Positions 6,620 to 55,786 of a stretch of DNA of 64,000 bases are shown in pieces. Position 1 is the first letter of the stretch. Every line of letters starts with the position of its first letter. The position numbers and the translations under genes were made by a program. The notes under the pieces were generated by a model. That model was given only the letters and a program-made list of their open reading frames with translations, searched no databases and was not told the DNA's origin. The DNA is from Rhina ancylostomus (taxonomy: Eukaryota). The stretch is taken from the NCBI GenBank assembly GCA_030265395.1, contig JARFYF010000112.1:68280482-68344481 (forward strand), given 5' to 3'.

Positions 6620-7310
6620 CTTTTCCACTGCCGTGGTGAGGCAAGATGCAAACCAGAAGAATGACACTTGATATTCCACTTGGGTACCCTACAACCCAAT
6701 GGTGTTAAGATTGAATTTTCCAGTTTCAGGTAACCCACACCCCCTGTGTTCCTTTCCCACTCCTACTGGTTCACCCAGGTTCATTTTCCCTTTGTTAACC
6801 TTTTCATTTCTTCCCTTCTCCCCCTTACTGAGAGTCCTTACTCTCCCCCACCTGAGCACACATACACNNNNNNNNNNTTTCTTCCCCCTTGTTGTACCCT
6901 TACTAGACCATCTCCCATCTGATTCCATTTATCACCTCCCCCATCTGGTTCCACTTATCACTGTCCAGGATCTCTCTTCCCCTCCCCTCACTTGGCTCTA
7001 TCTGTCCAGTTCTTTTTCTTTATTTGTTTCCATCTATCTCCCACCAGCCTTTTCTCAAAGCTCCCCCTATGCATCCTCCACCAGGCTCCATCTGCCCATC
7101 ATCTCCCACATCACCTAGTTCCACCCATCACCCCTCCCTCTCACCTCTTTATACTGGATATCTTCCCTCAACATTCTCAGTCTGATGCAGGGTCTTGACC
7201 CAAAATGTCAACCATTCCTTTGCCTCCAGAGATGCTACTTGACTCACTAAGTTCCTCAAGCAGTTTGTTTTTTTTTCTGTCCAGATTCCAGGATCTGCAG
7301 TCTCTAGTCT
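6620..7310 (+). mobile_element. Penelope-like element 3' end: endonuclease C-terminus, CT-rich spacer and pLTR with a degenerate hammerhead motif
   Basis: 6626-6733 translates HCRGEARCKPEE*HLIFHLGTLQPNGVKIEFSSFR*, resembling the C-terminus of the PLE GIY-YIG domain (E..LI..L.TL.P.G.N). 7178-7215 reads CAGT-CTGATGC-A-GGGTC-TT-GACCC-AAAAT-GTC-AACCA. Confidence 0.75.
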
Positions 7311-9275: not shown

Positions 9276-12239
9276 ATTGACAGTTGTTTAAAGTGTGAGC
9301 ATCCTGCCCTTTGGTTTCTGGCTCTTTCAGTGAGGACCATGCCACCGCTGCTTTCAGTTCTCCCCCATTCCAACAGCTTTAACTAGGGCCTAAAAATGGT
9401 CTATGTTTGCTAGCCTTAAATACACACTGGAATTTTAGTGCCCCCCCCTTCCAGTTCTATTCACTTCAAAGGAAGGGAATATTAGAAGATGGGTATAAAG
9501 GACAGTTGATGGTGACCAATATCAAATTTCTACCCCTAGCAGTTTGTCACTTGAGTAGTTAGATTGTGACACCTATGTCTCCCAGATTGTAAGGAATTCC
9601 TTTCCTATATCAATCTGCAATACCACCCTTGATTCACCTTTTGTTTCTCTTGGTAATTACTGTGCTTCACAAAAGGTTGCTCAGAAATGGCTGCCAAGTC
9701 CAACAGCTGAAGAAAGAAGTGGGTTTTCCTTCTGAACAACAGTTTAAAAATAATTGGAATCATCTTTTTTTTGTAATTATTACATTCATAGCTGAGCTAA
9801 GCAAATAAAGCAGCCTGGGAAGCTGTAACAGGCTCAATCTTCCTCACAGCAGGTAGTTAAAAGTTCAGGTACTAATGAGTAAATGATAAAAACTAAAACA
9901 ATACTTCAAAAATAAAAGAATGGAACAGATTTTGGTTTTACTTAAGTTTGATTTTCACAAAATTGCATGCTGTACATTGGTTTACTGAATGACCATGTCA
10001 AAAATAAATGATGCGAAGATTAGCACCATAAAAGTGCTTGACACAAAGGAAGTTATCTGTTTGACAGATGTCATTTGTTGAGTTGCAAATTCCAATCATG
10101 GTTGGATCAACATGGGGTGGAAGGGAAAATGAAAGGGGAGTCACCCTTGGTATGATGCTGCATGTTCTGGTGTCTGGTTACATAGAAGATTAGCAAAGCC
10201 TGATGTGTGCCATGGGGAGAGGGAAGAGAGGGGGAAGGTAAAAGTCAACAACTGTGTTGGAAAAATAAAGCTGTTCAATGAAGTGGCCTTTAGAGCCCAT
10301 TTTCTAAAATCTGTTACTGAAGATGAGGCGTGGTGTTCACACTCCAGTAAACTGCCTATTTTTAATCTGGAAGACCTGTGTTCAAATCGTGGTGTTGAGT
10401 AGCATTTGCTATTAGATTTGCTGAAGAGAACCAGCTTGACTGATCTCAGCATGATGTCTCCACAAGCCTAAACCAGTGAGCAAGAGGCAGAGAGAGAGAT
10501 AGAGAGAGTTCTGTCCTGCACCATTCAAAATGCTTCCTGGTTAGCTGTTCTGACAGGAGTGAAAATAATCACAGGCAAAATCTTTACTATCAAATATAAA
10601 AATGTTAAAATTTTATATCAGTACAGATCCTTTCCTTGAAGATTTTGAAGGTAAACCCAGCGAAGTTCTTGAAGATATTAAAAGACCAAGTTACTGTTAA
10701 TTCTGCTTGGTAATCTCAGTAATAAATATCAGTGTTTATTAATTTAAGAGCACAGATTTAACAGTTACTGTGTGGAAACCGTCAATATAAAGCCAATGTT
10801 AAGAATTCTAGCCCTGAAATATTAGCTGTTCTTTATTGCTTCTGAAGAGCACAAGGTGCTGCTGATTTTAAGTTAGATACTACAGTACTGGCGAAAATCT
10901 ATTAATGACTTGGGTCGTTTGCATGCTTCTTTTAGAAAAGGCACCATTTCTAATGGTGTGTTGTTTCCTTCGTGCAGAAATTCTGCTGCAGTCCCCAAAG
11001 TCCCCAGGCAGTGGCAGCCACCCAGATTCTAGTGAAAACCCTGCAGTCTAATGTAAAAGCTGTTGCAGAGTTACTTCAGTTAAGGGTGCCTAGGCATCTG
11101 CACTAAGCAGTTCCAATGGATTCAGTGCTGTCAAATGAATATTCGTAGCAGCAGATTCCTGTCACAGTGACATTCTTTTGCTGAACTAAATTTACAAGTT
11201 GAATGGAATTCTTCGTAAATGACCGACGATTCCAGGTTCACACCTATCATGCATTTACCTGTTCTCTTCAATGCAGTATTGCATTCTCCGGTTTATTTCC
11301 ATTTGACGGTTATAATTGCTAAATCAGTGGCGCACTGGTGTTTCCAAGTAGAAAGTAGAGATGTACTGTATTTAAAGTATTTTGTTTGCAAACATTTTCC
11401 GACTTTGTGGAACACGAAGCGTGATAGGAAACTTAAGTAAGGTACAGCACCATACTGAAATTGATTTTATATCAATGTTCGAACAGCACGACTTCATTAA
11501 TTGAATATTCTATAACCTTGCTTAGGTTGTTCCCGTTCACTATAACATGTGGCACAGTTTACTTGAAAGCAAGGCAAACCCTTCTAAACAATAAACGAAT
11601 ATTACTTCAATATATCCAAAGTATTTAATACTTAAATGGGGCTAGAGTAATAAGATTTTCCAAGATAAATTCAGGGTTAAAAAAAAAGACTAAGATTTCT
11701 TCTCAACGAGCGTATGCTTTCTGATGACACTTGAGCTTCCTCTCTCAATTTATTGCTAAGGTGTTGGATTGATATACAATATGTAGCTTAGCAGTGCATA
11801 GAAAAAAAGTGCCCTCCTAAAACCGATTGGCTTCTTAATAATCTCATACATATACTGCTACCTCGGTCTCATTCCTAAAATTAACCCAATTCTAAATGTT
11901 ATGTAAGGACCTGTAACCTCTGCGTTACTGAAAACACAGGAGATATGTAACGCGAATGGACAGATATTAAATCAGGGAGCGGGATAAAAAACCGTCAGTC
12001 ACCATTCACCTTTTTCCTTGTTCTTTTCTTTATTCTGGAGTGTGGCGAAATGCTGTGTATTTACAGTACTTCTGCTCCTGTTTGAAATATCCAGTGTTCA
12101 CAACATTTTTGATAACTTATTTTTCTGAAGGTGGCCTTTCATCTTAGCAGATAAAGGCAGCACGATGTCACATCAATTTTCACCGGAAAGTATCTAGAAA
12201 AACTCCCAAAGAAAATAAAAATTCCAAGATTAAATTTGG

Positions 12240-12698
12240 TGGATAGCAGCTGCGCAGGAAACCAAACAGCACGCAGGTTAATGACTTCCCCACCAAACAT
12301 GCAGGAAATCCGGCACTACGAGGGTTAATGACTTCCACCTCAAACTTGGCAGGATCCCAACCCTCAAAGTGTTTGTTTGACTGTTTCGTTATAATAACCT
12401 TTGGATTGTCATAGAGGACAGGCCGCCAGTTTTACAATTGCACTGTTCACAGTTTGGGGTGGAGCAGAGACAAGCTGGCCCCTCCCGCACGACCTACGGA
12501 GTGCTGAGGTATGAGACGTGAGCCACATGATCAGCTGAGCTCTTATCCATTTAAGACAGAGCAACCCACAAAGACTCCCAGCTACCGAGAACTGAACAGC
12601 CATTCAGCAAGCACTGAAGCACGCACACGCCTCCTTTCGCAGCGACTGACCACACTATAGCAACTGCAAGTTCATACTGAAGATACAGAGGAAAGAAT
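12240..12698 (+). promoter_or_regulatory. APLN proximal promoter and 5' UTR
   Basis: CpG is locally enriched relative to the flanks. Motifs: GC-box-like CCCCTCCCGC (12479-12488), ACGTG (12516-12520), E-boxes CACATG (12524-12529) and CAGCTG (12532-12537), GATA site CTTATC (12542-12547), TATA-like TTTAAGA (12550-12556). A duplicated ETS-containing module lies at 12254-12354. Confidence 0.7.
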
Positions 12699-12765
12699 AT
12701 GAACGTCAAGTTCCACACACTCGTCCTCTTGGTCCTCTTTGTCTCTCTGACCCTTGTATCTGGAG
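12699..12765 (+). CDS. APLN: Apelin precursor, coding exon 1 (signal peptide MNVKFHTLVLLVLFVSLTLVSG + 1 nt)
   Basis: ATG at 12699 starts 22 codons of a typical hydrophobic signal peptide, then GGAG|gtaatt donor (phase 1). The 22-aa length matches the human APLN signal peptide (MNLRLCVQALLLLWLSLTAVCG). It splices in frame to the exon at 23509. There is no upstream ATG in the ~120 nt before it. Confidence 0.93.
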
Positions 12766-14779
12766 GTAATTTTTTTTGAACTTTTACGTATTAAATCTCT
12801 CCTGGAAGAAGCTGGGGTAAAGTTGATCAGGGACACTGTCGATAAAGGCAATTTACTGGAGAAACACCTGTTAGTGATTATGAGTGGAAGACAATTTAAA
12901 ATATTAAGTACAGTTATTGAAAATAGAAGTAAGATATAACGGGATTCGACCAATAACGTTTAACTTTTAAATCAACATTGTCTTTGATGCACAGAAACTC
13001 TGCGTGCAAATCCAAAGCTTCCCTGAAAAATGCATGTCAGAATATAGAAATGATGCTCTGTATGTACCTTGTGCATATTCCTGTTACTGGGTTACATTAA
13101 TACTTCAAAGATTATAAAATGATTGTACATCATGTTGATTGATGGAGTGATACTTAAACCATAGACTTCATTGAGCTGTTTATCTGCATCAGGCTGTGGG
13201 AGCTGCCTCGTGGAAGAACGGTGACTGTTCAATTTAATTTAAAAACGTGATTTTTTTTTTGTTAATAATTTCATAAATAAGAAAACATTGTTATTTAAAC
13301 CAATTACAACTGATGCCATATTTTAATATTTTCCTTTGTCATTGCTTTATTTTTATGTTAAACCTTTTTTAAGCCATGTTTACTCTGTGGAGGAAAAAGA
13401 ACTTGCTTATTTTTTGGTTCCATTCAGTAAACCCTGACATTCCCTGGCTGTGGAATGGAGCACTGCACGAGATTGCTTCTGAGTGATATGTCAACATTTT
13501 GCTCTTGTTTCAAATATAATACTACAATATTGAAAAATGCCTAGTATACAAAAGCAATTCTTGTATTGAAGTTGTATCAAGGCAAAAACAAAACATAATT
13601 TTTTAAAATCTGTGTTTATTCATTAGGATATTATAATAAAAAGAAATGGCTTGAGAGGAGACAGCTCCTAATAACAGTACTAACATAATGACACAAATGC
13701 TTTTGGTGCTGAAGTTTCAACGGTTCTGTGTGGCTCAATGAGTGCTAGACTGCCTTTCAGAGGGTATCAATACCAAACCCAGCTTCAACCTACACTCTTG
13801 GTTCACCAGCCTCTGTGGTTATTCCAGCCTTTCTCAGCTGTGCTGCCAGTTGAATTATTTTCATTGGCACAGGCATTGATAAATGCCAGCAGCTCCAAAT
13901 GGAATCGTAACATTTTCTAGCTTAAATGCTGGTAAGTCCAGGGTCTGCAAGCAAAGGAAGTTGTCAATACACCGTGTTGCTGAACCATGGACAACTTCTG
14001 AGATTAGTAGTCGGGGAATTGACCCTCAGACCTTGTCACAGAATCCAAGATGTTGTGGAGCTCAATGTGGATTGTAAAACTGGTTATAAAAAGGAAAGTA
14101 AATTATTTTCTTGAATTGTTTAGTTCAATATTTTAAATTATTTGTCCTTTTTGATAAGATTACTTGTCCATTTGTAAAAGTTTTTAATGTATCTAAATGT
14201 TAGAGACATTAAATACTATTAAACATTTCCTGAAAGCAATGAGTGCTTTCAGGGCTGGTGGTGAGGCATAGGCAGCTGTCAGGGTCTGACAGTGTGGTTT
14301 CTGTGCACTGTTGGAGGCCTTGTCACTACTCAGGCCACACTTCTGGAGACTAGGATGCTTGAAGTCAGCAAGAAAGACTCTCTCTGCATGTAGTCCAGGT
14401 AAGCGTGGGTGTGGGGAGACTGTGGGTGATGATTTCAGATGGCGTGCCTAGGCCACAAAATTCTGCCCAAACTAAAACAAGCCTCTTGTTATGGTTGGCA
14501 TTGGAGGAGTTTTGGTGCTCTTGCTGAATGTTAAGTGTGTAGAGTTAATATTTCATTCTTGGGATGGATCAGATTGGGCAGTTTGGATTCTGATTTCTGG
14601 GCTTTAATGAATGTTTTCCATCACAGTTCCTCATGAGGATCAGAGTAGGAGTCTAAAGCCAAACACGGCCAATTCAGAACATTACTATAGATCAAAAGCA
14701 CCTCAAATCAGATTAGTTTAGACACAAATAGTACCCATGTTTGTTATAAGTGATTGGATCACAAATCCACTCGGTGAAA

Positions 14780-14960
14780 AACCTGCAGATTTTGGAAATC
14801 TGAAATAAAAATGGGGCATTCTGGAAATAAAGTTGGGCTGCATTTATGGAGAGTAAAACAGTTAATGTTTTAGATTGACAGTTTGTCAACATGAAACATT
14901 AAATTTGTATCTCTTTCCACATATGGTACCCAACCTGTTAAGTACTTAATATTCTGCTTT
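14780..14960. mobile_element. Old Penelope-pLTR-derived foldback element in APLN intron 1
   Basis: ctgcagattttggaaatctgaaataaaa...tatggagag..acagttaatgtttt on the left is mirrored by gaaacattaa..tctttccacatatg..acctgttaagta on the right. Same family as 61968-62157. Confidence 0.5.
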
Positions 14961-17628
14961 CACTCAAGTTATCCTCCTATCATCAATCCATATTAATTTG
15001 ATGAGAACAGGTTAATTCTTCACATTCCATTGCTATAAACTTGAGTAATATCAAATAATGCTACTTGCTTCCATTGCAAGTTAATATAAATTCTTATAAC
15101 TAATTTAAAATCAAAAGCCAAGACTACTGGATAGGATTTGATCAAGCTGAAATTTCTGCTCACTTGTGCTACATGTATTGTTTATGAGGAGTGCAATGTG
15201 CAGAGGACTCTCATCTAAACCATTAAGACTTTGCTGCACTCTCACCAGTCCATTGTTGAATGCACCTGTGGCTTCTTGATGGATTGTGCAATAACTCTTG
15301 AAACATTTTTTTGTCTTTTTCTCCTCTCCCCCTCCATTGCTCGCACTGGGCGTGCTGGCAATCGTTCTCGATACCTCATGCAAGTGGCTATTAATATGCC
15401 AATCCAAACTGACCCATTGAACGGCTCATTTGTGGCACCATTCAGAGCCCAATTGCTTGCTTAAAGAAAATCTGTACACCAGCAGGAGTCGCCAAAGAGC
15501 AATCGTAATCCCAGTGTAATCTGCTGTCTTGTATCTTGATCAGAGGTACCAAAGCCAAATACATCAACAGCTTCCAATTTGTAGGAGACCAGCATAAACT
15601 TGGAATAAACCCTGAAACCTTCTTGATTTGTGTGCTCTCATCACTTTGGATTGTTAATTTCATTGCTGAAACCCTTGTAAAAGTTGTAGCTTGTACAATT
15701 TATGATCACAATTGATCTGTTTCAATTAAAGCTTGTCTCTTTCCCGTTTTGCTTTATTCTTTGATTTCATTATATAAAAGGAAATGAGTTTTCCCAATTA
15801 GTGATTTTTTGGGGGGGGGGTGGCCAAGGGAGAGCCATAGTTTTTTTTGAAAGCTACTAGGTGAGAATGAAAGAGTACCAGGTAAGGCATGGAGATTAGA
15901 TTGTTTGAGCTGATAAATGATCAGTAAAGAAATGTACTGATCTCTGAATAGGGCAGACACATTCATGAAGATTCAAAGTGTTGTGTGAAATATTAAGATC
16001 ACCTGCTATCAAATTTCCTTGGAAAGCTATTTAAATGGCTGCACCCTTAAGAGTCACCATCCAGCTTCCCCACCCACCTGTACTCGGCGAAGTTACAGGG
16101 TGAAATTCAAGGGCTCCTTTAAAAGGTGTAGAAAGCAATGCTTAATTTTATAAAGCCAAAGCTTCCCTTAACTGGATCCAAAAATGCATTCCTTTACTCC
16201 TTGCACTGCTGGGGAGATTTGTACTCATCTCTGGAACCCTCCACTGCTGTTCCAGCAGGTTTGTGTCAGAAAAGATATTCCAAATACAAGATGGTTAGAT
16301 TTGCCTCAGGATCTTCATTGGGAGAAAAACCTGATTTGAATATGTTTGAGGCTCCTGGATATCCAAAGGGTTGAGGGTCATATCTAGGGACACTACTTGG
16401 TTTTAACTTGCATCTTGCCAAGTTCCAGCTATAACTACACTTGCCTGTGTCTTTGTGAATAACAATTTGGTAATGAGGAACTAATTGAACCTGTAATTAT
16501 TACGGCTACTGGCTTCCAACTTGGTTGATATAACTCAACTGCTGTAGTAAAGGCACCAAATGCCATGAATCCATAGATTACACAATCAACTGAGGAACAC
16601 CTGAATATCAAGAATCCAAAAATGATTCATTGTGTGGGAACCAGTGAGTAGATTTGTGCATCTAGGTGAATTAAATAGTTCCTGCTTGGCTGATCGAGAT
16701 GATCTATTTTCCGTATAATCTTAAACTATTCATGTAACTTATTAATAGTTTAATTTGTGCTACACTTAAATCAGAAGTGCAGATGACATCATTGATGTCA
16801 AGTGTAGATGACCTGATGCATCCTTCCAGTTGTACATTGTTTAGTCTCTGGCCCTATGTCCTAGTTATTTGCAGATATGTTTGCATTTCAATTTCTAAAA
16901 ATGAAGATGACTTTTCAGGGAATACTGAGAAGTACTCTGAATTGCAGCAATATTTTTCATTTGTGTTCAACAAGGCTTAACATTTGTTTTATAACTTTGT
17001 TTCACCTTAAATGTGGCATGTTTTGACTTTTAATATCCTCAGAGGATCTTGCTTATGTTATTCATATCCTTTACAAGAACTCGCTAATTATAGGAAGCAG
17101 TTCATTAGGTCTAAACATTGAACCTGTGGGTGTGGTTTGGTACCACAGTTGTAGAGTGAGGATCATTCATTTATTTCTAGATCCTTTTTTAAACAAGGAG
17201 TGCATGCAGTTTGTGCAGTCAATGATAATGGGTTAACTACAAAAGATAGTCTTTGCAATTACGATTTTAACAGGCCTTATCATGCTGGTACCAGCCAAAT
17301 CAAACACTAGGATTTATTGATCAAAGTTTGAATGTCAGAAGCACTGTATATGGAAACTAAAGTAGGGTAGTAGCATGTCCCAATGGCTTAATGTTTATAC
17401 AGGGAGTAACTTAGCCATGTAGTTTAGTCTTTAGGTTGTTGCTAGAATGGGGCCAGGAGGTGAAAACTTGCCAATTTCTAGTTGTGTTTGTGGGGTTTAT
17501 TTAAGGATGGGATTAGTTTTTAGTAATTATGGCCCTTGAAATGAAATAGGCTGCAAATAATACACAGGGTTAAATGAGCTGGAATCTACCATCAGATTCT
17601 ATTGTTTAAGAACATTTAGTCAATGCAG

Positions 17629-17891
17629 TGTTACGTTCCAGCAACAAAAGAAACACACCGAGACATGTATAAATGTTAAAAACTACTTTATTAATAACTA
17701 CTTATGATAATAAGNNNNNNNNNNNNNNNNNNNNNNNNNNNNNNNNNNNNNNNNNNNNNNNNNNNNNNNNNNNNNNNNNNNNNNNNNNNNNNNNNNNNNN
17801 NNNNNNNNNNNNNNTTTATCTTCTGTTGACGTAAGCACACCACACACACAATCTTAAAGGAACCTCACTAATTGTAACCTAGTCCGTAACA
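17629..17891 (-). mobile_element. Probable solo LTR (Gypsy-like) in APLN intron 1; the middle is an N gap
   Basis: The termini TGTTACG...CGTAACA form a perfect 7-bp inverted repeat with TG...CA ends. The 4-bp TSD GCAG lies at 17625-17628 and 17892-17895. AATAAA is on the minus strand (actttatt). Confidence 0.8.
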
Positions 17892-19699
17892 GCAGTGAAA
17901 ATCGTATTTTGGATAACTGGATTCCAAAAGTGCAGATAAAACATGCAGGAGCGTAACAAAACCAAAGTTCTTAAACTCAAAGGTTAGATTCAACATCCAT
18001 TTCTCAAGTTATGTGAACACTGGTGGTGGAAAAAATTGAGTGCATTGAAATAGTGCAACTGGAGGGAGTGAGTTAAAAGCAATGTCGTATCCTGAAGAAG
18101 GACTCTGTGAACAGTGCCGGGGCTGAACTTGTAGTGTGATATCTTTGATTCTTAATTCTCACTGCTTGTCTGCTGAATGTGGATGGGATATAGTAGCTGG
18201 AGGCAACAGGCCAGGCCAAAGGAATGGTCACTGGCATTTGGGTAATCATGAAGAGGTTTTGCAGAGGCCTTGTGTTTGAGAAGGTGTAGAACCTGGGACA
18301 GCTGTGGCTTAAAATTGGTGGCATCTAGAGCACTATACCTGGACATACCTGGCATTTCAAGGGAAGTGGAATTGGAATAAATTTGCCTGTTTGTCTAGCC
18401 TCTGATCCTCTTACTTGCATCTGGTAGGAAAAGAACAAGGGTTTCTTCTCAGACTGTTAGCTAAAATATCAGCCAGGGTCTGATGAATGATTAGACCCTG
18501 ATCTACATAATTAAGGAGCAATGCTGACTTTACTGTGCTGTAATGGTTATTTAGAACAAAGAACATCTTACTCACATTCTCAAAGTGTAGAATAAAATAG
18601 AAAGGGATGTGGGTAGTTGAAGCTCTAGGACAATCTTAAGTCCCTAATGGGCTTGTTTCTGCAAAGTGCTTGGGGTTAAAATTGCTTTTCTATGTTTTGC
18701 AGTTTGGATCCAATCAATTTTAAATTTACATTTCCATTCTGAATGGAGGGGGCTACATACTGGCTACTGAATCTCCAAGGAGGAGGGAATCTGATTGTGA
18801 ATGGTCAGAAGGGATGGGAGGGCTGTTGCCTGTTCATATGGAGTAAAGTATTCCAAAACAAAATCAGAATATCTACATGAGCTGAATGCAATGCAGGTTT
18901 ACTTAATTTCACAGTATGCTTTTCTTTGAGATACCGGACAAAAACAATTTTTTTTTTCCTCATGGAATTTGATTACCAAATGACCAGTCAGCTCTTCCTT
19001 CCACAACTGGGCTCACTAATTTAAGACTGGAGAAATGGTTATATTAAGCTGCACTAAACACGTGGATCTGTCAGCGAGATGATGTGGTAGGGGAGAGGGG
19101 TGTTAGTTTCTGTATAAAGATGGGATTGATTGGCCCTCAAATATCAATAGATGCTTGGGGGGGGGCATGCAATTGATAAGACTTGCTTGTCAGTAGAATG
19201 ACCCAAACATGGGAAAGTGTCCTTTTGAGAAAGGAAAAGTACACATTTTGGCACTGCTCTTTCAGAAGTGATTTCTGTCAGGTAGCAACTAAACAGAAAT
19301 GTCCTATGATGTTTTATTGATGAATATTCTGACTTACAATTAGTGAAATGAATAAAACTGAACTAGCTATAAATAATAATTAATTTATAATCTTGTTCTT
19401 ATGCAGACACGTAGCTGCATTCCTCCAAGAATTATGCACATATTTGAAGCAATTCCCCTGCAGAAGTAGTTCACTCTATTTTCAGGTTTTTTAAAGATGA
19501 TGATCCACTGATGGATTAACAATGCTCATAACTGGAATTATGTGTAGTTATTTTCTGCCAGCCTAGAAAAGGGATGGGATCATTTCTCAAAGGAATTGGC
19601 CACCTTTTTCCACAGCACCTGAGCCTACAAGGAAGTTCTGCTCCATACTCTGAATGTAGTTGTCTAGGGGATCACGTTAGGTGGTTTAAGACATGGGGA

Positions 19700-20090
19700 T
19701 AGCCATAGTATCATAGATTTGCAAAACAGACCATTTGATCTATTCTGGTCAAGAAAGAACTACACAGCCCAACCCCACTTTCCAGCACTTAGTCCACAGC
19801 TCTTCAAGGATGTATCTAGGATCTTTATAGGCATCCTGAGGGTGCCTGTCTCTACCACACTTTCAAGAATTGATTTTCCAGACCCCTAACTTCCTCTAGG
19901 TAGTTTTATTTTCCTTGTGTTCCCTCTGATCCTTCCACCTTAACTTTGATTTTTTTTTCTCCCTTGATTTTTGACCCCTCTGCTAAAGGCATTCTTTCCT
20001 ATTATTCTAACTCTGGTCTTCAATTTTGTACAGTAATTGTTGACCCTCAATCTCCTCCGTTCCAAAATGGACAACACCAGCATATTCAAT
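19700..20090 (-). mobile_element. Old CR1-like LINE 3' fragment
   Basis: tcatagatttgcaaaacagaccattt..., ccccacttttccagcact and ttccagacccctaac resemble the reverse of the CR1 3' ends elsewhere in the window. Confidence 0.5.
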
Positions 20091-20092
20091 CT

Positions 20093-20510
20093 TTTGGTTT
20101 GGTAAATTGGTTTATTCTTGTCACATGTATCAAGGTACAATGGAAAAACTTCATTGCATTGCCACCTATACAGATCACTTCATCACATCAATACATCACA
20201 GTAGTACAAGGGAAATAATACAATGCAGAATATTATGTTGTAGTGCAGGTAGCCAATAAGGTGCAAGGCCATTATTGAGGTCAAGAGTCCATCTTATTAT
20301 ACAAGAGGACCTTTTTAATAGTCTAACTGTGGGATAGATTGCTCTTGAGCCTGGTGGTATGTGCTTTCAGGCTTTTGTATCTTTTCCCTGACGGGACGTA
20401 GGAGAAGAGAGAATGTCTGGGGTGGGAGTAGTCTTTGATTATGTTGGCTGCTTTACCAAGGTATTGAAAACTATAGGCAGTCTGTGAAGGGGAGGCTAGT
20501 TTTCGTAGCT
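20093..20510 (-). mobile_element. Rex/Babar-like LINE 3' fragment in APLN intron 1
   Basis: Colinear with 55790-56240 (ggtaaattggtttattcttgtcacatgta...cttgagcctggtggtatgtgctttcaggcttttgtatctt...tttgattatgttggctgctttacc). Confidence 0.85.
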
Positions 20511-23508
20511 ACAGATTTCCAGTCCAGGCAACATTTGAAGTGATTTCTGTTTTTATGTGTGGCTATTTTGCTTAACAGAACCACAACATGGTTAGTCTCA
20601 ATATTAAAATAGAAGGACAATGAGAAGTCAAAGGGTATTGGAGCAATGCTTTTGAGATAAGTGATCTGGCCTCTTTTACAAGGGCAAAAGAGGTAGTAAA
20701 CATCAATGAATTGATATTGGGGAAATCTTCAAACAAAAATTAAATATTTCCAAGGGAAAATGCTAATAGCATTGAAGAGCTCCATGGATAACTGAACAGA
20801 AAACTGAAATGTAAGATTTAGTTAAGACTAGTAATCCAAACATGTAAGAAGTAGCAGATACTGAGATGTTGGACTGCTGCAGACTGCATGTGCTCTTTTG
20901 CCTACTTAGTGCCCTCCAGACGTGCAATGCATAAGAAACTGGAATTAAAATCATAGATTTTACAATCTGGGCACAAGTCCCCAATCTTCATGGAAATGGC
21001 AATGCCAAGCACAAATGTTATGCCATTGTAGGCTTAGAATTTGTATTTTAAAGTAAAACTGTGACCACTTAGAAATATATAGATTTAAAGGCAATAAACT
21101 GATTTGCTGTTGACAAGTTTGTTTGGCAAATCTGAGAGATTTTTTAGGTATGACTGACTAGGTTGACACAGGTATTGCAAAGTAAATAGATTTTCAAATA
21201 GTCACTTGACCAGGATGGGTAAGAAGACAATTGAAATTTCTCCACTCTCAATGCTTCATGAAATGTGAGTGGAAGCTTATCAGTTTGATAGCTTCTATCC
21301 ATTTAAGGCAAGGATATTGCAAATATCAGACATCAGAACATAGTGACTCTGAGCAGATATTCATTGGTTTCTCATTGCATTGCAACAAACAGTAACTGTA
21401 GCCCACTAATTTTTGCTGACCTTATCCCTTTTTAATGCACCAAATGGTAGGCTTCCAAATGATGTACTGACTAATTCTTCCTTTTCCATAACACAACCAC
21501 ATTTGTTATTAGTATGTGTTCTGTTTGTTCCTCATGATATGAAGGAGAAAAGGCTTATGGAATTTAAATTTACAAGGAAATCATTAACAGCAATTAGATG
21601 TAGGACATTTCAGTGCAGGAGTTATTATGGTTAGATATAGTTTTAAACATTATCAGTTTTGGGACCCACTCTTTGTATCATGAACACTTGAGAGCATTTT
21701 CCCTTAAGGTGCATCAGTTGCCATATTGGATGTCGATGACTTCCTGGTGTAAAGGCGCCCAACTGAAACTAGTGTTGGGTCTCCTTTCCCTATCCCCACC
21801 AACCACCTGAACTGACAGTGATGGGTGTATGTATAGAACCATGAAACTGATAAATGTTGCTCAAAAGTGATCAAACATTTTAATAGCTTTATTTCTGGAG
21901 TGTCAATTGACAATATTGAGTTGAAAGTAAGATGGGACTCATAGCAAATGTGGGCTCGTAGCAAATGGAATTGNNNNNNNNNNNNNNNNNNNNNNNNNNN
22001 NNNNNNNNNNNNNNNNNNNNNNNNNNNNNNNNNNNNNNNNNNNNNNNNNNNNNNNNNNNNNNNNNNNNNNNNNAACCATAGCAAACAAAGTCAACTTGCT
22101 TAGAAAGCTAAATCATTTTAAAGAGAAGAGGAAATGGAATACAACTGAAATTAGTTATTTCTTCATAAAGGGTAAATAAGCCAGAAATTGGAGTGAATAG
22201 GGGATAGTTGAATTCAGATTTTATGCACAAGATCATTCAGTCATTGACAGCAAAATGGTCACCAGAGTTGATTGACAGGAGAACTCTGGCTGTACTGGGG
22301 GCATGCTTTTGGACCAGCTGTGTTGGAGTCATCAGAAATGGCTGGATACCAACCAGCAAGCTGAATCAGGGCATGCAATTGGTGACTGCAGCTCAAGTAT
22401 TTAGGGTAGATTTAGCCCAAAGTCTGACTGCAACCTGGCTAAGGGCTACATTATTCATGATCAGTACAAGTGACAAGTTCAGAATAACAAGCCTATGTAA
22501 AGCTAATATTGGAATTTGTAGCAGACACAATGGGTGCTTGGTACAGATTTTTACTATTTTATACACTTAAAGTAAATCTCACGCTTGGACCCAGAGTGTA
22601 TTAAATGTGACAGGTAGGCATGACATCAAATTTAATGTGAGATGTGTTTTAATATGGAGAGTAGGCTGAAGCAAGCACAAAGTCTTACCTGGGCAGGTGT
22701 CAACCTGAAATTGGGGGAACGATCATCCCTGACTGAGCAAGATATTAATTTTTAGACATTGTTTATAAAATTAGAAGGCAAACAGCAAGGTTTTCTATCT
22801 TAGCATGAATATTAATGTTTAATAGGGAGCAGTCAGATGGTTGTTGCAAAGAACAGTACTCAACAGAAAATAAATATTTAATGTCAACTGGGAAATTAAC
22901 ACCTAATAAGAAGATTACTGCTATTGTATAGATGAGACAAATATTCTTCTTGCATGGAAAACAAACTTTTTGTGCCTTATTTAACAAATTCATAAATTAG
23001 TTTAGAAAAATCTCATTTCAACAAAACAGTTCATTATAACTGAACATTCATTTTACTCCCAGCAGTAATGAGACAAACCTTCTGATGTGAAATGTAAATG
23101 ATTTGGCTGGAGGCTGCTGGCATCAGTGGAAGTGCAGCTTTCCAGTCGCTGTTCACTACTTGTTTTTGTGTGAAGAATTATTACTCGAATGTAGCCTGAC
23201 TCTGGTTTTAAAAAGCCTGTGGTTTGCAAATAATTTTTTTTATAAAAGGTTCTACCAAATGCTATATTGTGTTGCCAAAAATTGGTTAATAATCAATTTC
23301 AAAAATTTCAATTGTTGCTAAGATTTATTTGCTTTTGCATGTTTACTTGAACAGCATTATAACCTCACTGTGACCTTCACTAGCCAGTCATTATCCCAAA
23401 CATATTCCGGCTGTTACAGTTTGCATGAATTTATTCCGATCTTGCACACTTCCAATTTGGCATGTCTTCACTCTCAACCATGACTAATCTTGCTTATTCC
23501 ATTCCCAG

Positions 23509-23669
23509 GGCCCATTGCCATCCTGTCAGAAGGATCAGCACTGGATGAGAGCAGCATTAGGACTTATGTACAAAAAGCAGGCAGAAGGCCCAATCAGAGA
23601 CATCTTCCATTGAAGAAATACAGGAGGCTGAGACCCCGGCTCTCTCACAAAGGACCCATGCCCTTCTGA
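23509..23669 (+). CDS. APLN: Apelin precursor, coding exon 2: (G)PIAILSEGSALDESSIRTYVQKAGRRPNQRHLPLKKYRRLRPRLSHKGPMPF*
   Basis: Branch-point consensus TGACTAAT at 23481-23488, pyrimidine tract and acceptor ttcccag|GG. The translation ends in the invariant apelin-12 RPRLSHKGPMPF, with TGA at 23667-23669. The exon ends at 23674 with donor CAG|gtaagg. Total CDS is 228 nt = 75 aa + stop. Confidence 0.98.
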
Positions 23670-24549
23670 GCCAGGTAAGGGAAGATACAATTTTATGAGC
23701 TTCATTTAATTATTTATTAATTGATCAATTCATTTTTGCAAGACTCGGTAAACGGTCATTATGTTAATCCTTTGCCACAGGTCCTGTGTATCTTGGATTA
23801 TTACCTTTAGTGACCACACTGCTCTTTGTATGGTTGCAGTGCAATAACTAGAGGTGTGAGTGATCCTTTACACAGTGAAGTCCCATATCTGTTGTTTTGG
23901 GGGGGGGGGGGGCAGGTTGAGGTGAAGGAGTATGAAATGCAGGTCTACAAATATTTGCAATTTCACACAATAGGGCTGAAATGATAAAATACAAATGCTA
24001 TACATATTAGAATGCATTGTATGAGAGTTGTATTGCCTATTACTGGAGGTTAATCTAATAGTAACTGTCTAAAATGTTGCATAAGATGTCCACAGTTGCT
24101 GCCCCATTGTGTGCACTGCACTATATTGCATAGAATAACTAGAGGAAAAAACTGAATTAAATGTTCTATACCCTATTTTGTATTGTCTTTCTTCCAACCA
24201 TAACTTTGAAAACATTGTCCCAATCTCTGGAATACTTAATTGATTTTATATTTGAAAGATAAACATGAGGGCAGCTAAATCTTTATTCAGTGAATCCAAA
24301 TTCCAGTATGAAGAGTTTGTTACTAGTTGGGAGTTAGCATGGCCTGCCATGCATTAAAGCTACTATAGATTTAACTGCAATATCTCACATTCCTTTCCCT
24401 GATAAATCACAAAAGGCTGATGCTATTCTAAACCCTTAGCCCTGACTGAGGAAAGTTCATTTTGTTGAAAAATTTAAATTGGTGTTTTTTTTTCTCCCCC
24501 AGTAAGTATTCTTAGTGTGTTTCCTTCTGTTAATTGAACAGTACAGAGA

Positions 24550-24929: not shown

Positions 24930-25340
24930 TAACATGACATGCCCAGTAAATGGCAGGGACAATTCAATGTCAGTGGTGATGTACAGAGCTTTAAATGTAA
25001 CTTCATTGCTCCATGAAAATGGCAATACGGGTGGATAGTGAAGAAGGCATTTGGCATGTTTGCCTTCATAGGGTGAAGCACTGAGCATAATTGGGCTATC
25101 ATGTTACAGTTGTACAAATTAGTCAGACTGCACTTGGGCTATTGTGTACAATTCTGGTTGCCACACTTCAGGTAGGATATGGTGGCATTGGAAAGAGTGC
25201 AAAGGAGATTCCCTAGGATGTTGCCTGGATTGGAGGGCTCTCATTATAAGGAGAGACTGGATAGGGTGGGTTTATTCTCACTGGAATGTTAGAGACTGAG
25301 GGGTGACCTTGTGGCAGTTTACAATATTGAGGTAAAAGCA
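24930..25340 (+). mobile_element. CR1 (HER1-like) LINE ORF2 C-terminal fragment
   Basis: Decayed KKAFGMFAFI...LQLYK.LVRLHLGYCVQFWLPHFR*DMVALERVQRRFPRMLPGLEG, a typical CR1 ORF2 C-terminus. Confidence 0.85.
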
Positions 25341-25375: not shown

Positions 25376-25980
25376 TAATCCATAGAAAAGTACAGCACAG
25401 AAATGGGCCCCTGCAGACCACCTTATCCATGCTGACTGTGATGCCTATCTAGGTTAATTGTATTTGCTCACTTTAGGCCCCTATCCCAATAATCCTTCCC
25501 TATCCAAATACCTGTCCAAATGTGTTTTTAAACATCGTAATAATTATGTCTCCATTACCTCCTGGCATCTCATTCCAAATATCCACCATCCTTTGTGGGT
25601 GGGGGGGGGGTGGGAAACTTAACAGATTGCCTTTTGTCCTCTCATTTCTCCCCTCTCACTTTAAATATCCTGTCCTCTAGTTCTAAACTCTCCTGCTCTG
25701 GGAAAACTTTACTATTTGTCNNNNNNNNNNNNNNNNNNNNNNNNNNTAATCTTGTAAATGTAGATAAGGTCACCCCCTCACCCTCTTATGTTCCAGTGAG
25801 AATAAGCATACCCTATCCAGTCTTCCCTTCGTAACTATTGGCCTCTATTCCAGGCAACATCCTGGCAAATCTCTTCTGCACTCTTTATTCCCAATACATC
25901 TTTCCTATAGTATGGCGACCAGAACTGTACACAATACCTTCTGTGGTCTAACCAATTCTTTCTACGATGACAACATGACA
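25376..25980 (-). mobile_element. CR1-like LINE 3' fragment, opposite in orientation to the adjacent copy
   Basis: catagaaaagtacagcacagaaatgggccc... is the reversed 3' UTR. caggcaacatcctggcaaatctcttctgcact and ggcgaccagaactgtacacaatac are the reversed VQRRF.RMLP and YCVQFWSP motifs. Confidence 0.8.
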
Positions 25981-26255: not shown

Positions 26256-27930
26256 GCCATTGACTTCACTTTGGATGTGTAATCATTCAGGAAGTGGCCC
26301 TTTAATACTCTGTCACCATTCTTCATGTGTGATTACGAATAGTGAATACTAGCAGTTTATTTTCCACTTGGACAAAGTGGAGGATTTGATTATCTAAACA
26401 ACTTTGGTTTAAAAAAAAATTGGAAATCCCAGGTTCCTAATGATCCATTTCTATCTTTAACCTCCTTGCTTTCATGGCTATCCTGCCTGAGCTCTGCTAA
26501 TTCAGAAGTAAAGATTGACTGTGCCTCAATGCACAGGAGAACACTTTTGAGAATTGACCCCTAAGATTTCCTTGCATAGCTGCTCTGGTTGATTCACAGT
26601 GACTATAAATGTCATGTTAATGCCACCTGACCTGGTCTCTGCCAGTTGTATCTAGTTTAATCAAAACCTTTCTGGACTTGGCTTTAAATGGATAGGAAAT
26701 CCAAGCCTTTTAACCTAGAACAATATATTCCCTATGCAGGCATATATTTTAAAGATTGGGAAAATATTCTAGAGTTAATTAGATATTTCTTTAAATGTTA
26801 ATTCAATTCCTTTCTTCTGCAAAGATACAAATATTTCCAGATCTAATCCATTTAAGTTAATATATTACAGATGTTATCCAACTGAAAGCAAAGTAGCCAA
26901 TATGCTAGATATCAATGAAAGACAAAAGTTAGTCCTTTAGTCTTCAGAGTATTAAGCATATGGTGCCTAACTTGGTTTTCTTAAAGTTGCATAGACTATT
27001 GTTTGCCAAGTGTACATAGTGATTTCAATGATACTGAGCTTAAAAACGTTCTAATCCAAAGAAGTTGGAGATAATGGACTACTTGGTGGTAACCAGATTT
27101 ATCACTACAATTCCCCAGAGTGGCGTCTTATTAGAATTAATGTAGAGACATGGGGATCTCTTTTCTGAGTAAGTGATTCCAATTTAATTTTTAAATATTA
27201 AAAATTAATGCCATGTCAAATAAATCAAATTCCATTAATATTCAGTGACTTCAAAGAATAGTGAGAATTGTAGTTCTGTTATTTGGGTTTAATATAATTT
27301 TGATATAAAATAACTCTTATGACTTGATCCAGAATTTTGCTCTTGCTGATTCTTTTTCTCCTGCAATATCATTCTTTAACTTCAATGTTATGTGTGTGTG
27401 GTGGGGGGGGGGGGGGGGGTGGTTTGAGGAAAAGCTGGTGTTGTGATACCAACTCCCATCTCCAGTTCTGGAAGGAATGAGCCAATCATGCAGACCCACT
27501 TGGTTCACTAGATCAGATTTTAGTGAGGTTCTAACATGCAGCATTGCAAGAAAAACACAAAATAGAAGCACCACATCTCCTTTCTGGGGAAAGGCACATA
27601 TGACAATTATTTTTTTTCAAATGCCAGATTGGTAAATAATTACATGGAATGGTAAACTGATACAGAAAGAGAATATGAACATCATATTGCTTTGGAAGTA
27701 AACAACCAGAATACTTGAAACAACCCTTAATGTATGTGTATTAAAAATTCTAATGGGATACCAATAATATGTACAAAGCCCACAGGAAATCTATAGTATT
27801 TTCTGTTTGAATTTCTTTGAACATCAAAAGATGAGAATGTGGTGAAGTTTTTCAGCACTACTTTATACAAACTTAGTTGTCATAAGGCTCTCCATAAACT
27901 AAGCACTGAATAAATTGCATTGCCCTTTTT
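26256..27930 (+). other. APLN: Probable APLN exon 3 (non-coding 3' UTR); 3' end uncertain
   Basis: The donor 5 nt after the stop codon needs a downstream exon. A strong acceptor (tgtgtttttttttcctctcag|G) ends at 26255. The following ~1.7 kb has no recognisable transposon. AATAAA occurs at 27219-27224 and at 27909-27914, the latter followed by a T-rich tract. Mammalian APLN also has a non-coding third exon. Confidence 0.6.
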
Positions 27931-30900
27931 TGTTGATGCATGGAAAAGACACTCTTTATTACTCCCCTCAGAGGTGAGGTATGCTTTTATCATTTTTTTC
28001 TATATTTATATTTACGCAAGATATCTTCTATGGTTGCCAGTTTTCTCTTGTGTGCATAGTGGAAAAGGCGAATCTGCACACAAATCACATTTCCTTTCAC
28101 AGGAATCCTAATCTGACATGTCATACCAAAGGTAGTAAATCAAGGCTCACATTTACACTTCTTGCCTCCTTTTGTAAAGTAGAAAAAGCCATAAGCACTT
28201 AAATATGAAATATTATGGAAAAAGTGATTAGGCAAGGGAAAGTAATGAAGTTAGAGATGCACTGCAAGATATTGCAGCATGGAACTAGTCCATTTTGGCT
28301 CATCAAAGCCACACCAGTGTCATCTTCACATGAACCATCTAGTATTTCCTTACTTTCTTGTGTGAACCGCATGCCTTTTTAATATTCCACTCTTTTTCAT
28401 TTCTGACTTGCTTTCCCCATTGATATTTTGTTTCTTTCTCCTTAATGAATTCCTGATTGCTTGTGTAGCTGTATTTGTATAGTAATTTGTGTAGCTGTAA
28501 TAGTATTTGTATCTCTTCAGAAGAAAGGAATCTAATTCTCCTCTTATTTATAAACACTTTCATTTTCTGTTTTGAACAAGTAAGGCTACAAACCTCTTGA
28601 GGCTGTTATTGCCAGGTGAGGCCACTTTTAATCAACATCATCAGCTTTATTTATAGCCTGAAGTTTTCAGCAGAACACCTTTTTGTTAGCTGCTTTTTAT
28701 GAAGATTGAGCCACAGTAGTAGTTTCCTCATAATTCTGAAAGTAAACATCTTTACCTTACTGGATTTGATTGTACCTTCATAAATATTCTGAAATTGCAT
28801 AGCATCACTGAGTTGAAGTATTTGTGAAGCAAAAGCTGGCACACAAGCCTATGTCTATAAGTGATACGGGGCAAATCTCCAGACAAGGGAAAAGCATTAC
28901 AATCACAATCCTGTAATAATTGTGTATCATTGCAAAATATTACTCGCACTTTGTAGGTAAATTCAAATTGTATTTGAAACTTCGGGATAGGTTACAAAGA
29001 TTGTGGTTGGTTGTGATCTGAGAGTTTCTGACCCATCTTTTATTTTGGATCACTTTATTTTCTCTGCACTCCTCCTGCTTCTGGCAAACACCAATGACAC
29101 CATCTTTATTCACTAATGGGTGTCTTCCTTCCTTTGGCAAGAAGAATTTGTAAAGATTTCCCTTAAAAAAAATATAATTACACAATTCCTCATGGTCAGG
29201 CTCAAATGCAGGTTTATTGCTCATACTTAAAGGCAGTAACTTTAATGTAATAAATTCATACTACTTGGTTTCCTGCAGGCCAATCTTGGCTTCCATTGTT
29301 ACTGGACTTCTGACTGCCCTGTGAGCTCTTATACTGAAAACTGCAATCATTTCAAATTATCCCTCCTTGTCCCATTGCAGACCATCATATGAAATTTGTG
29401 CAATGAAACAAGACTCCTTCTGATTGAGCTTTGATTTAGCAACGATCCTGGTGCTATCCTATTTAACATCTATTTCAAAGGACAGGAGACATTAAAGCAT
29501 GTTCTAAAAGATACCTCTGTGAGCCTTTTTAGTCCCCAGCATTGCATCCAAGGAAGCATCACTTATTTTGACTCCATTTCCATTAGTGCTTTTTATCTCC
29601 ACAGCAACTATAATTATATCAATCTTCATGCTTGGTCTTTGATTCCCACACTTGTTGGTTGGGTTGGATCACCAGAAATGATGTGAAACTGCAATTGGCT
29701 GACTTAAATATTGACAGACGTACTGCACTTGGTTTCCTATGTGTTCCAGATCCATGCCACCCTAGCCCCCTGCCATGCCATCAGCATGACTGGAAATTAA
29801 ATCCAGTCCATGAAGTCTGAAAACTTTACAGAATTGTTCAGTGATTTTTTTTTTCTCACTAGGCTCAAGGGCTCTTTTTTTAAAAATTTTATCCTTCCCC
29901 AGGTGCTCAAAAAATCTACCTCCCCCAAAACACATGGTAATTAAAATAATGCTTGACACCATCTAATCATTACTACTTTATCTAGCACCTCCTTTATTTC
30001 CCATCTTTGCTGTTGCCCTGCACTGTTGGCTTGGCTAGTCACCAAACCTCCCAATATGGCAATTGGGAGTTTTCCAGAAAGGAAATAGCACAAATGCTGA
30101 GAATACCACCTGGAATGGAGGTATAGCTCAGCCAAAGTTTAATTTAGTTCATTACTGTCTAACTGTTCAGATATTTTGAATGTTTAATGGATTCTTTCAG
30201 CTCCATCACAGCTTCCAACATTCTGACTTCCCAGTAAACTGTGTGGCTTTTGAATTGAAAGATTTTCTGATATGCAGCCAATACCTTTTGGACTCTGGGA
30301 ACATTCTGCAATTAATCCCCTCTAAGTTGATAGTAATCATATGCTGTTGGATTTGGTTTTGAGGGCTGAAAGATTTGGCTGATGCTCTTTTAGCAAGATG
30401 ACTTGTATTCTTGGTTTAGTCTGCTGAGAATCAATGTTAAACTATCATGCCTACCATCNNNNNNNNNNNNNNNCTGCTACAAATGGAGGAACTTTGATTG
30501 GGTGGGGACATCAAATGCCTGATCAATGACACCATCCTACCCTGCATGTGTATTTGCAGCACTGGGTAGTTGAGTGCCATTTGAAGGAGATAAAAGGCAG
30601 GCAGGGTCTTCAGTAATGGACATAAATTGCAGCTCCCACAGTATGTTTGGGAGATCAGTTTAAAATTTGTACTGCCTGAGCTTTCCAGACATGCAGACAT
30701 TTGGCAGTGATGGGGAGAAGGGAGCTGCTGAGCCCACAGTGCTTGCCTGTCTAGGCAGGAAGAAAGTCCACTCAATCCAACCACTTGTGAAACCTTCAGC
30801 CTCTCCTATACCCAGTTGTTGCACTCAGCCATTCTCTTACCTTATTAATGCATGCATTAATGTTTAACATTAAGAGGCCAAAGTAATAATTGCCTTGCTG

Positions 30901-35590: not shown

Positions 35591-35839
35591 CCGGCAGTCC
35601 CCGCCTTATGAACGCCCGATTTACGAACATCCATACTTACGGGCCTTCGTGGGTCTCTGGGCCAAGTGCACATGTGCAGCCGGGGAACCCCCAGCCCAAG
35701 TGCGCATGTGCGGCTGGGGCCCAGCGTGGTCGCAACCCCTGGGCCTAGTGTGCATGCTCAGACACTTCCAAGTTGTGCACAAAATCTGGTTACGAACAGT
35801 CTCTAAAACAGAACTCGTTCATAACCCGGGGACTTTCTG
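35591..35839. mobile_element. Tc1/mariner-superfamily (Tigger/pogo-like) MITE
   Basis: TA on both flanks (35589-35590, 35840-35841). The ~24-bp TIRs are CCGGCAGTCCCCGCCTTATGAACG on the left and CAGAAAGTCCCCGGGTTATGAACG (reverse complement) on the right. The GC-rich interior has repeated AAGTGCRCATGTGCRGC units. Confidence 0.85.
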
Positions 35840-45820: not shown

Positions 45821-46403
45821 ACTGAATGCACAACTTGTCGTCAACCACGAGAAGAAATGTAACAGGTGTGGAAAACATCTTCCACAATAATTTAAGTTTC
45901 CCACCTCCATCTTAATTATCTTTATTTACAAATTGACTTTTCTCATTGGGATTTATTCAAGCCTAATAATCAGTTTCAAAGCGGTAACACAAATAAATGG
46001 CTGTTTTCAGATTTCCCACAGCTGAAGCAATAATTAGTGGAATTCACTTTTCTCAAATGTGTTAAAATAAACCTTCCTCACTAAAAACAGTTGCAACTCA
46101 TAAAAGCAGTTATCAAAGATTCCTTATCAATATCATATTCAAAATAATAATCATGCTTTAACTAACTGCTCCACAGCATTTGATTACTTGGATTTTGATA
46201 CATTTAGAGATACATAGTTCTCTCCAACTTAAAGGTAAAGTTTCATCATAAAATTTTTTTGGATATTGGCTTACTCATGTAATTAAGTAACAAGTGGTGT
46301 TCTGGTGATTTTAAAAGTGTGCAAATGGTACAGTTCAAGATGAAAAACATTATGATGCTGGAGGAACTCAGCAGACCAGGCAGCATCTGAGGAGAAAAGC
46401 AGT

Positions 46404-46441
46404 CAGTCAACGTATTGAGTCAGGACTCTTCTTCAGAACTG
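46404..46441 (-). ncRNA. Degenerate minimal type-I hammerhead ribozyme motif (mirror copy)
   Basis: The minus strand reads CAGTT-CTGAAGA-A-GAGTC-CT-GACTC-AATAC-GTT-GACTG. Confidence 0.55.
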
Positions 46442-46633
46442 AAGATAGGAAAAGGGGAAGCCCAATACATAGGAGGGAAAAGCAGAGTAGTGATTGATGG
46501 ACAAAAGTGGGGAGGTGGGGTAGGCACAACCTTCCTATCAACACTTTGTGCCCACCCCGCCTCCCTTCTTTTGTCCATCAATCACTACTCTGCTTTTCCC
46601 TCCTATATATTGGGCTTCCCCTTTTCCTATCTT

Positions 46634-46671
46634 CAGTTCTGAAGAAGGGTCCTGACCCAAAATGCTGACTG
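46634..46671 (+). ncRNA. Degenerate minimal type-I hammerhead ribozyme motif
   Basis: CAGTT-CTGAAGA-A-GGGTC-CT-GACCC-AAAAT-GCT-GACTG: stem I (CAGTY/GACTG), CUGANGA core and stem II are present. GAAAC and the NUH site are mutated. Confidence 0.55.
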
Positions 46672-49054
46672 CCTGCTTTGCTCCACAGATGCTGCCTGGT
46701 CTGCTGAGTTCCTCCAACATCATAGCGTTTTTCATCTAGATATTCCAGCATCTACAGTCCCTTGTTTTTCTGGTATAGTTCGAGGAGCAGTGGGAGCGGT
46801 CTAGCGTCTAGTCGAAGCTTTATTCATTTTTTTGTACAATAGTTTGCAGTTTATATTTAGGACCATTGATAATATGGACCAATTTGACACCTTGTTTAGT
46901 GCATTTTACATTAAATTAATAGTGCTGCAATCAGACAGACTGCAAAATGCATCAAATGCTGTTTAGCTTCTTACAGAGAAATAAAACAAGCTTAATATTA
47001 CAGCCTACAGGATGTTATGCTGCCTGAATAGAATGGACTGTCTTCATAGACACTCCAGAGTACCTGCACAAATGCACCATGTCTATAATTATCATTAGTT
47101 ACAAAAGATAAGGGCAGAACTGAATATGGTGCAACTGATAATGAATGTAATAGTAGAATGGCTGCAGATTCCCAAGCAATCTACCCGACCCTGCATTTCT
47201 GCTAACCCCAATGGTATCCTGGCTTAAACTCATTCACGTGACATCCTTCCATTACTCCCCTGGAAAATATCCAAACTGTGGGATCTCTGTATCATTAGAA
47301 TTTAACTTAAGTGACTTCAAGAAAAGAACAGAAAAATAGAGAAAAATCCTTCATTAATTTCAAAATTGTACTCTACATCCCTTATGCCAATTTAAATTTT
47401 GAAAGCTTTTGCTGAGCACTATGAGCTTGTACAACAAATTCTCATAAGCAATTTTTCAACAGTGAAAATGGTTACATCAGTGTTTAGTCCATTTCATCAC
47501 ATCCAATATATCCACTGACCTATATATTTTAATGAGCTATATGGGTGTACTAGGTGGATGTTACAGCAGGGAACCAATGATCCTCTCAGTGGCGGGCTCC
47601 TACTGCAAATTTTAAAAGTGCCCATAGGCCGGGATCTCAGGCACTACTGAATGAGCATTGCACTTTTCTGCTCGGGATCATGATATAGTCAGCGTGAAGG
47701 GCTGGAAGAGGGGAGCTTAGTTGGGAGATGGGCATCAGCTGGAGGATGGGTGTTGAGTCAGTAAGGAAGGTTACTGATGGGATAGGGGTTTGGGGAGAGG
47801 TCTTAATGCAGAAATTGGGGCCTGAAAGCAAAATTGATGGACATTGGGAGGTTGCGGCAGAGTTGGGGGAGGTGTGGCAGAAAGCTGAAAATGATAACTT
47901 ACAGGAGTCCTAATCTGGCCTGTTGTCCTTGGAGTCTTTTCTGGAACAGCTATATCAAAGTTCCTCTATACTTCTTCAAAACGAGCATTGGCAAGGAAGT
48001 GGTGTAACCCCCTGTGCAACTGACACAGAAATCACACCAGGAGTCCAAGGGAAGAGCTCAGTAATGTGTCCAAAGAACTGCAAAAGCAGTGTGGAAATAA
48101 TTTTAATGACATTTCATTCCAGGTTAAGTCAATTCTTATTCGTAGAAGAATACAGTGTTATGTGGATGAATTTCTGGTCTACTGTTTTAGATCAAAATGT
48201 CTGAGTATGTTTACATGATTATTGGTCACTCTCCTAAAGCATTACTTACTCACAGAAGTAAAATCTAGTAGATTTTGATGAATTCAGTAGTCTTATCCTG
48301 ACAGTTACTTACACAATAATGGAATGCAACCAACTTACTAAACATTAGACAACATTAAAGTAGCAACAACAGAAGTGACAATTAAGAAACATATGTCATG
48401 AGAAAAGCAGCTTCAAGGCTGTAGGACAATTTATAAGATACACTACAGTGAATTAGGAACTCAAATGCAGTTTCGAGATTTTGGGATGTAGGCTATAATT
48501 AATTCCTGCAAGATGGTCATGATTAGATATTAAATATTCCAGATTATAATGCCTTTAGATAGAACAGAGAAAGTGGAATGGGGTGAAGGGAGGCTTTATT
48601 GATTATATACACTATTGCAACCTTAGTAAGAGAGCATGTAGGAAGGAGAAGCAATCAGTGAAGAAACATACTTAAAACTGATGAATAAGATAGTTCTTAA
48701 CTGTAAATGGGACATCTGAAGGCCCTGTTATCATTACTGAAGTAGCTGCATTACTTTATTCAGAGATTGCAAATAAAGTAAAAATATTTTAGTTGGAGAC
48801 TTTAATTTTCAGAAAAGTTGAGGGGGTACCTCAAGTAAAAATCATATTGAATTTCCTGAACACCATACAAGAGCAGAACCAATGAGAACACAGACCATAT
48901 AGAATGTAGTAATGTGTAGTGAGCCAGATTTAATTAATAATCTATAGTAAGGAAAATAAATCTAGAGGTTTTCATAATATGTATTCCTCAAAATAAAAGT
49001 TGATGTTATTGTGACTTTTCAGGTTTTTGAAAGAAGTTGATGGTTTAGATAGGG

Positions 49055-55520: not shown

Positions 55521-55786
55521 TAAGTTGGAGTCAGTCTTACCCAGAACTTTGGCAGTTTTTTTGTATCAGTCCCTCTCAAACATCATAGCAGGATCACAAT
55601 TAGTTAAGTGCTCAGACTCCATGAGGCTGTTGACTAAATCCACAGAAGTTACTCCAATTTCTTGTAAACTTGGAGCAAGATTATTGAAACTCTAGAGAAA
55701 ATGCAGTTATTTAAAAATAATAAAGTAAATCTATTCCCTATAGGGTTCTACCAGGTTCTCACTAAACTTACAGAAAGATATCAAAT

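Follow-up and report, generated by a model that had tools for sequence, protein, structure and literature searches.

Among the closest described systems to the locus studied here are the apelin genes of human and chicken. In the portions of the sources available to us, human APLN is described as a three-exon gene whose coding sequence lies on exons 1 and 2 and whose 3′ UTR is divided between exons 2 and 3 (PMC8645901), and the 77-residue human preproapelin corresponds to a proapelin of 55 residues (PMC13197934), a difference of 22 that agrees with the 22-residue human signal peptide quoted in an earlier note on this DNA. The chicken gene, according to the available part of its description, also has three exons, the last one non-coding, and its 78-residue apelin carries two dibasic sites before the 13-mer and has no pyroglutamyl form (PMC6315173). 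For mammalian proapelin, the accessible passages report that furin (PCSK3) releases apelin-13, that ACE2 trims the last Phe and that neprilysin cuts within the RPRL motif (PMC8645901, PMC13197934). In non-mammals, apelin receptors signal through Gi and ERK, and their second ligand, known as Elabela, Apela or Toddler, is made from a 54-residue precursor with two conserved cysteines (PMC6315173, available in part).

Information on cartilaginous fishes is scarcer in these sources. A review of apelin in fish, as far as its accessible text goes, covers studies in teleosts only (PMC5126056), and the available portions of PMC8750556 and PMC5499810 contain nothing on shark apelin. No paper devoted to chondrichthyan apelin was found in the literature searched, most subscription journals lying outside its coverage. 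Here we describe a locus within a 64-kb window, the whole stretch of DNA that was analysed, that is very probably an apelin (APLN) gene, with two coding exons whose predicted splicing gives a hormone precursor of 75 residues. As in human preproapelin, the predicted leader comprises 22 residues and the coding sequence is placed on exons 1 and 2, with a 3′ UTR that may likewise be split; the full precursor is 75 residues long against 77 in human.

Gene model and probable downstream exon

The coding part of exon 1 (12699..12765, plus strand) starts with the ATG at 12699 and extends over 67 nt, that is, 22 codons plus one nucleotide (phase 1), covering the predicted 22-residue signal peptide and the first base of Gly23. 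Its donor, GAG/GTAATT, follows directly after 12765, at 12766. Exon 2 (23509..23674, plus strand, 166 nt) opens after a pyrimidine tract and CAG (..CCCAG/) and encodes the proapelin, including the dibasic pairs and the apelin-13 core; a TGA stop at 23667–23669 is followed by 5 nt of 3′ UTR. Exon 1 joined to exon 2 at these sites gives an open frame of 75 amino acids, and this translation is identical to the one given in the earlier note, whose model of two coding exons joined by a phase-1 GT-AG intron was thereby reproduced. The predicted GT-AG intron 1 (12766..23508, plus strand), with a branch-point-like CTAAT at 23484, measures 10,743 nt as assembled, in line with the distance of 10.7 kb first proposed for the two exons; however, it contains two 100-N gaps (17715–17814 and 21974–22073), so that the intron length is approximate and the linkage of the exons depends on the scaffolding.

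Splice sites were scored with rough frequency matrices. On this scale, the acceptor at 23509 is the top-scoring AG within 12800–23600, and the donor of exon 1 is moderate, among the top 1.7% of GT sites. [quoted passage not shown] A single-exon reading was ruled out, as no ATG precedes the final Met-Pro-Phe in the apelin frame of exon 2. Since exon 1 without splicing gives only 26 residues and the exon 2 frame offers no ATG before its last three residues, an ORF track would miss both exons, in keeping with the earlier description of the gene as hidden from it.

The description of this gene as complete applies to its coding sequence but not to the transcript, because a third, non-coding exon is likely to lie beyond 23674. 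A strong splice donor, GTAAGG (23675..23680, plus strand; context CAG/GTAAGG), stands 5 nt past the stop as the predicted start of intron 2; when the 3285 GT sites of the plus strand are ranked with the rough matrix, it belongs to the top 0.06%. Such a donor just past the stop, together with the non-coding exon 3 of human and chicken, makes a further exon likely. Its position is a guess: the tentative exon 3 (3′ UTR; drawn as 26256..29254, plus strand) is made to start at the acceptor that scores highest in the next 6 kb, with a value of 10.0 that is the third best among all downstream AGs; a rival acceptor lies at 24503. AATAAA words, any of which might mark its end, occur at 27219, 27909 and 29249, and no strong donor is found within 500 nt after 26256. 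Within predicted intron 2, two decayed LINE 3′-end fragments, which we take to be CR1-like from their translation, lie in opposite orientation at 25020–25320 (plus) and 25760–25970 (minus); their arms are 78–84% complementary and could pair in the pre-mRNA.

Identity of the exons

Exon 2 encodes an apelin. Its 52-residue peptide matches the Pfam Apelin family (PF15360) with 57.3 bits against a cut-off of 27 (E = 2.2e-15) over profile positions 2–55 of 55. When the frame is taken from 23484 to 23666, residues 9–61 match profile positions 1–55, and position 1 corresponds to the Gly codon that the intron interrupts, which indicates that exon 2 begins where proapelin begins. A word-indexed protein search with exon 2 returned one match from one candidate, the apelin of C. 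milii (UniRef A0A4W3HLR3, 73%), and an exhaustive search gave ten matches at E ≤ 0.001, comprising C. milii, seven full-length proteins (50–54%) and two partial matches in long proteins. The ungapped alignment with C. milii contains 38 identical residues out of 52, distributed as 18/18 at the C-terminal end and 20/34 in the part before it. The C-terminal 12 residues, including the RPRL motif, are intact, with the terminal Phe directly before the stop. They are the same as in human, as the earlier note had stated, the comparison being with apelin-17 as printed in the available part of PMC8645901 and not with the full precursor; 15 of the 17 residues agree, the differences from the mammalian peptide being Tyr for Phe at position 2 of apelin-17 and Leu for Gln at position 1 of apelin-13.

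The assignment as an APLN orthologue is supported by the Pfam match, the C. milii homologue and an exon layout like that of human and chicken. Its further attribution to chondrichthyans agrees with the closeness to C. milii (73%, versus 50–54% for the seven other full-length matches) and with the Leu1 that the two have in common, a comparison that involves one named sequence. As the protein is nearest to this holocephalan yet differs from it by 27%, the gene probably comes from an elasmobranch, a shark or ray. The word-indexed search returned no elasmobranch apelin entry; given that it returned no bony-vertebrate apelin either, the missing entry is weak evidence. A repeat of the protein search with an alignment brought nothing further, none of 12 candidates was retained in a protein search for longer forms, a PDB sequence search covering chains of at least 20 residues gave two chance matches and no apelin, and Rfam gave no match at the gathering score. 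Elabela, as partially described in PMC6315173, resembles the apelin reported here in its short secreted precursor, its dibasic processing and its receptor family, and its three exons would correspond to the layout predicted here. An identity as Elabela/Apela was nevertheless ruled out by the length of 75 residues, the lack of Cys in exon 2 and a Pfam result naming Apelin only.

The C. milii entry (72 aa) has the KK and RR pairs and Leu1 in common with the present precursor, and it differs in lacking the R48-R49 pair. Its homology begins exactly at the exon 2 boundary, its model has no start Met, and its residues 1–20 are not alignable to exon 1. Judging from the sequence, these first 20 residues appear to be a mis-predicted first exon, and with neither a Met nor a similar N-terminus the model cannot confirm exon 1. 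It does illustrate the earlier remark that genes for short peptides are easily missed by annotation.

The 22-residue signal peptide that exon 1 is predicted to encode was judged by hydropathy. The exon's peak hydropathy of 3.36 ranks first among 194 ATG..GT phase-1 candidates (46–112 nt, positions 1–23400), of which it is the only one that combines a hydrophobic core with a fair donor, and it is also the sole candidate passing among 502 of any phase. The same filter, whose thresholds were fixed after the candidate had been seen, passed 0 of 223 candidates downstream, 0 of 382 on the minus strand and 1 of 60 local shuffles. The leader has one basic residue in its first six and no acidic residue, and no ATG occurs within 12528–12698, upstream of the chosen start. 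A 74-residue apelin homologue, the one examined among the seven full-length matches, has a leader of equal length with a similar hydropathy peak (3.3 vs 3.4). BLASTP of the 22-residue exon 1 peptide against this homologue gave no alignment, and a global alignment of the two leaders gave weak similarity, with a score reached by 1.65% of 2000 shuffles.

The region around exon 1 is enriched in CpG (11001..13000, 11–13 CpG per 500 nt vs 0–6 in the bins on either side and 2.9 on average over the window). A rise in CpG is expected at a promoter, and this stretch is likely to represent the promoter and first-exon region. Some 350 nt before the start codon, two head-to-tail 47-nt copies (12254..12347, plus strand) are identical at 35 of 47 positions and share an identical 14-nt core that occurs in the window only at 12276 and 12323. 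Both units contain GGAA words, presumably ETS-like, and the pair is a candidate for a duplicated cis-regulatory element. HIF-type RCGTG words are present at 12516, 13002 and 13245; with 41 in the window overall, they are too frequent for a hypoxia element near exon 1 to be claimed. The human APLN hypoxia element is located in intron 1, according to the available part of PMC13434150.

Three alternative readings of the locus need to be weighed against this evidence. Exon 2 could be a true apelin exon and 12699–12765 a chance look-alike, the real first coding exon being hidden by one of the assembly gaps or located beyond the window. The missing significant alignment between the exon 1 peptide and the homologue would be compatible with this, as would the two 100-N gaps in the intron, the only moderate donor and the different N-terminus of the C. 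milii model. That N-terminus, however, without a Met, looks like a prediction artefact, and 12699–12765 is unique among the 502 candidates, agrees in phase and length with what a 22-residue leader would require and falls within the CpG peak; we consider a different first exon quite improbable. A second reading takes the locus for a silent or decaying apelin copy, a pseudogene or paralogue and not the working orthologue, for which one could point to the lack of a neighbouring gene within the window. Against it, the frame and splice sites are intact, CpG has been kept at exon 1, and conservation is piled up in the active C-terminus (18/18 vs 20/34 upstream), as under purifying selection, which leaves a silent copy extremely improbable. 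A third reading assigns the apelin to a vertebrate that is no cartilaginous fish, in favour of which it can be said that the searches returned one named homologue; the closeness to C. milii (73%, versus 50–54% for the seven other full-length matches) and the shared Leu1, where Gln or Pro is reported elsewhere, make it quite improbable. The reading that we retain is an apelin gene whose first coding exon is predicted at 12699–12765.

Predicted processing and the Leu1 variant

The pathway proposed for this precursor is drawn from mammalian and chicken apelin. The hydrophobic leader of 22 residues encoded by exon 1 would direct the precursor to the secretory route. It would be removed by cleavage after Gly22, where Val and Gly fit the −3/−1 rule, leaving a proapelin of 53 residues. 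Basic pairs are found in the precursor at R48-R49, K58-K59 and R61-R62. Furin-type convertases would be expected to cut at the latter two to generate apelin-17, apelin-16 and apelin-13 forms, and the R48-R49 pair may be without function. The cleavage sites of furin/PCSK3, ACE2 and neprilysin in mammalian apelin are all present here. The mature peptides would act on an apelin receptor, which is a Gi-coupled GPCR, and would probably be inactivated by the proteases ACE2 and neprilysin.

Position 1 of apelin-13 is Leu in the predicted peptide, as it is in C. milii. The same position is Gln in mammals (PMC8645901), and Pro has been reported for chicken and other non-mammals (PMC6315173), both sources being available in part. 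With Leu at this position, no pyroglutamyl form is expected; this is also the situation in chicken, where, as here, two dibasic sites precede the 13-mer. We found no description of [Leu1]apelin-13 in the literature searched. A broader proposal, to which we would give an even chance, is that cartilaginous fishes possess their own [Leu1]apelin-13 as a third state beside the mammalian Gln/pyroGlu and the non-mammalian Pro, that this locus supplies the real signal-peptide exon absent from the elephant shark model, and that cleavage at the additional Arg-Arg pair could yield a 26-residue apelin specific to the lineage.

UniRef already contains a chondrichthyan apelin (A0A4W3HLR3), and the present gene is an ordinary conserved orthologue. 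Knowledge of the apelin system is unchanged by it: the family and its layout are on record already, as is a member from chondrichthyans. Its value is modest and lies in annotation, with one small sequence variant (Leu1) in addition: it contributes the entire precursor of a cartilaginous-fish apelin and points to a likely error in the public C. milii model. It also opens apelin to experiments in sharks and rays with primers, synthetic peptides and receptor assays, the physiology of blood vessels and of water balance being examples.

Surroundings in the window

Among 412 stop-to-stop frames of at least 50 residues compared with Pfam, three scored above the cut-off, namely the apelin and two LINE-type reverse transcriptase pieces, and six weak matches fell below it; no other host gene, including OCRL and XPNPEP2, appears among these frames. 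The reverse transcriptase belongs to a broken LINE (56206–56881, minus strand) with Pfam RVT_1 and ALKBH8_N above the cut-off, and the adjoining DNA at 55781–56210 has a related copy at 20086–20480, inside intron 1. The GC content of the window is about 32–45%, and repeats are scattered throughout.

At the gaps 1442–1541, 54604–54703 and 63186–63462, the two flanks share exact repeats of 31, 18 and 30 nt, respectively, which points to contig ends that overlap, as in a short-read assembly; neither of the gaps within intron 1 has such repeated flanks. A CpG-rich element of 249 nt at 35591–35839 has 23-nt terminal inverted repeats (18/23 matching) with TA on both flanks, and we assume it to be a miniature transposon of the Tc1/mariner type. 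At 46335–46740, a 195-nt inverted repeat is 91% complementary, with 16 nt between its arms, and its repeat family is also represented at 7179, 31131, 51596 and 62009.
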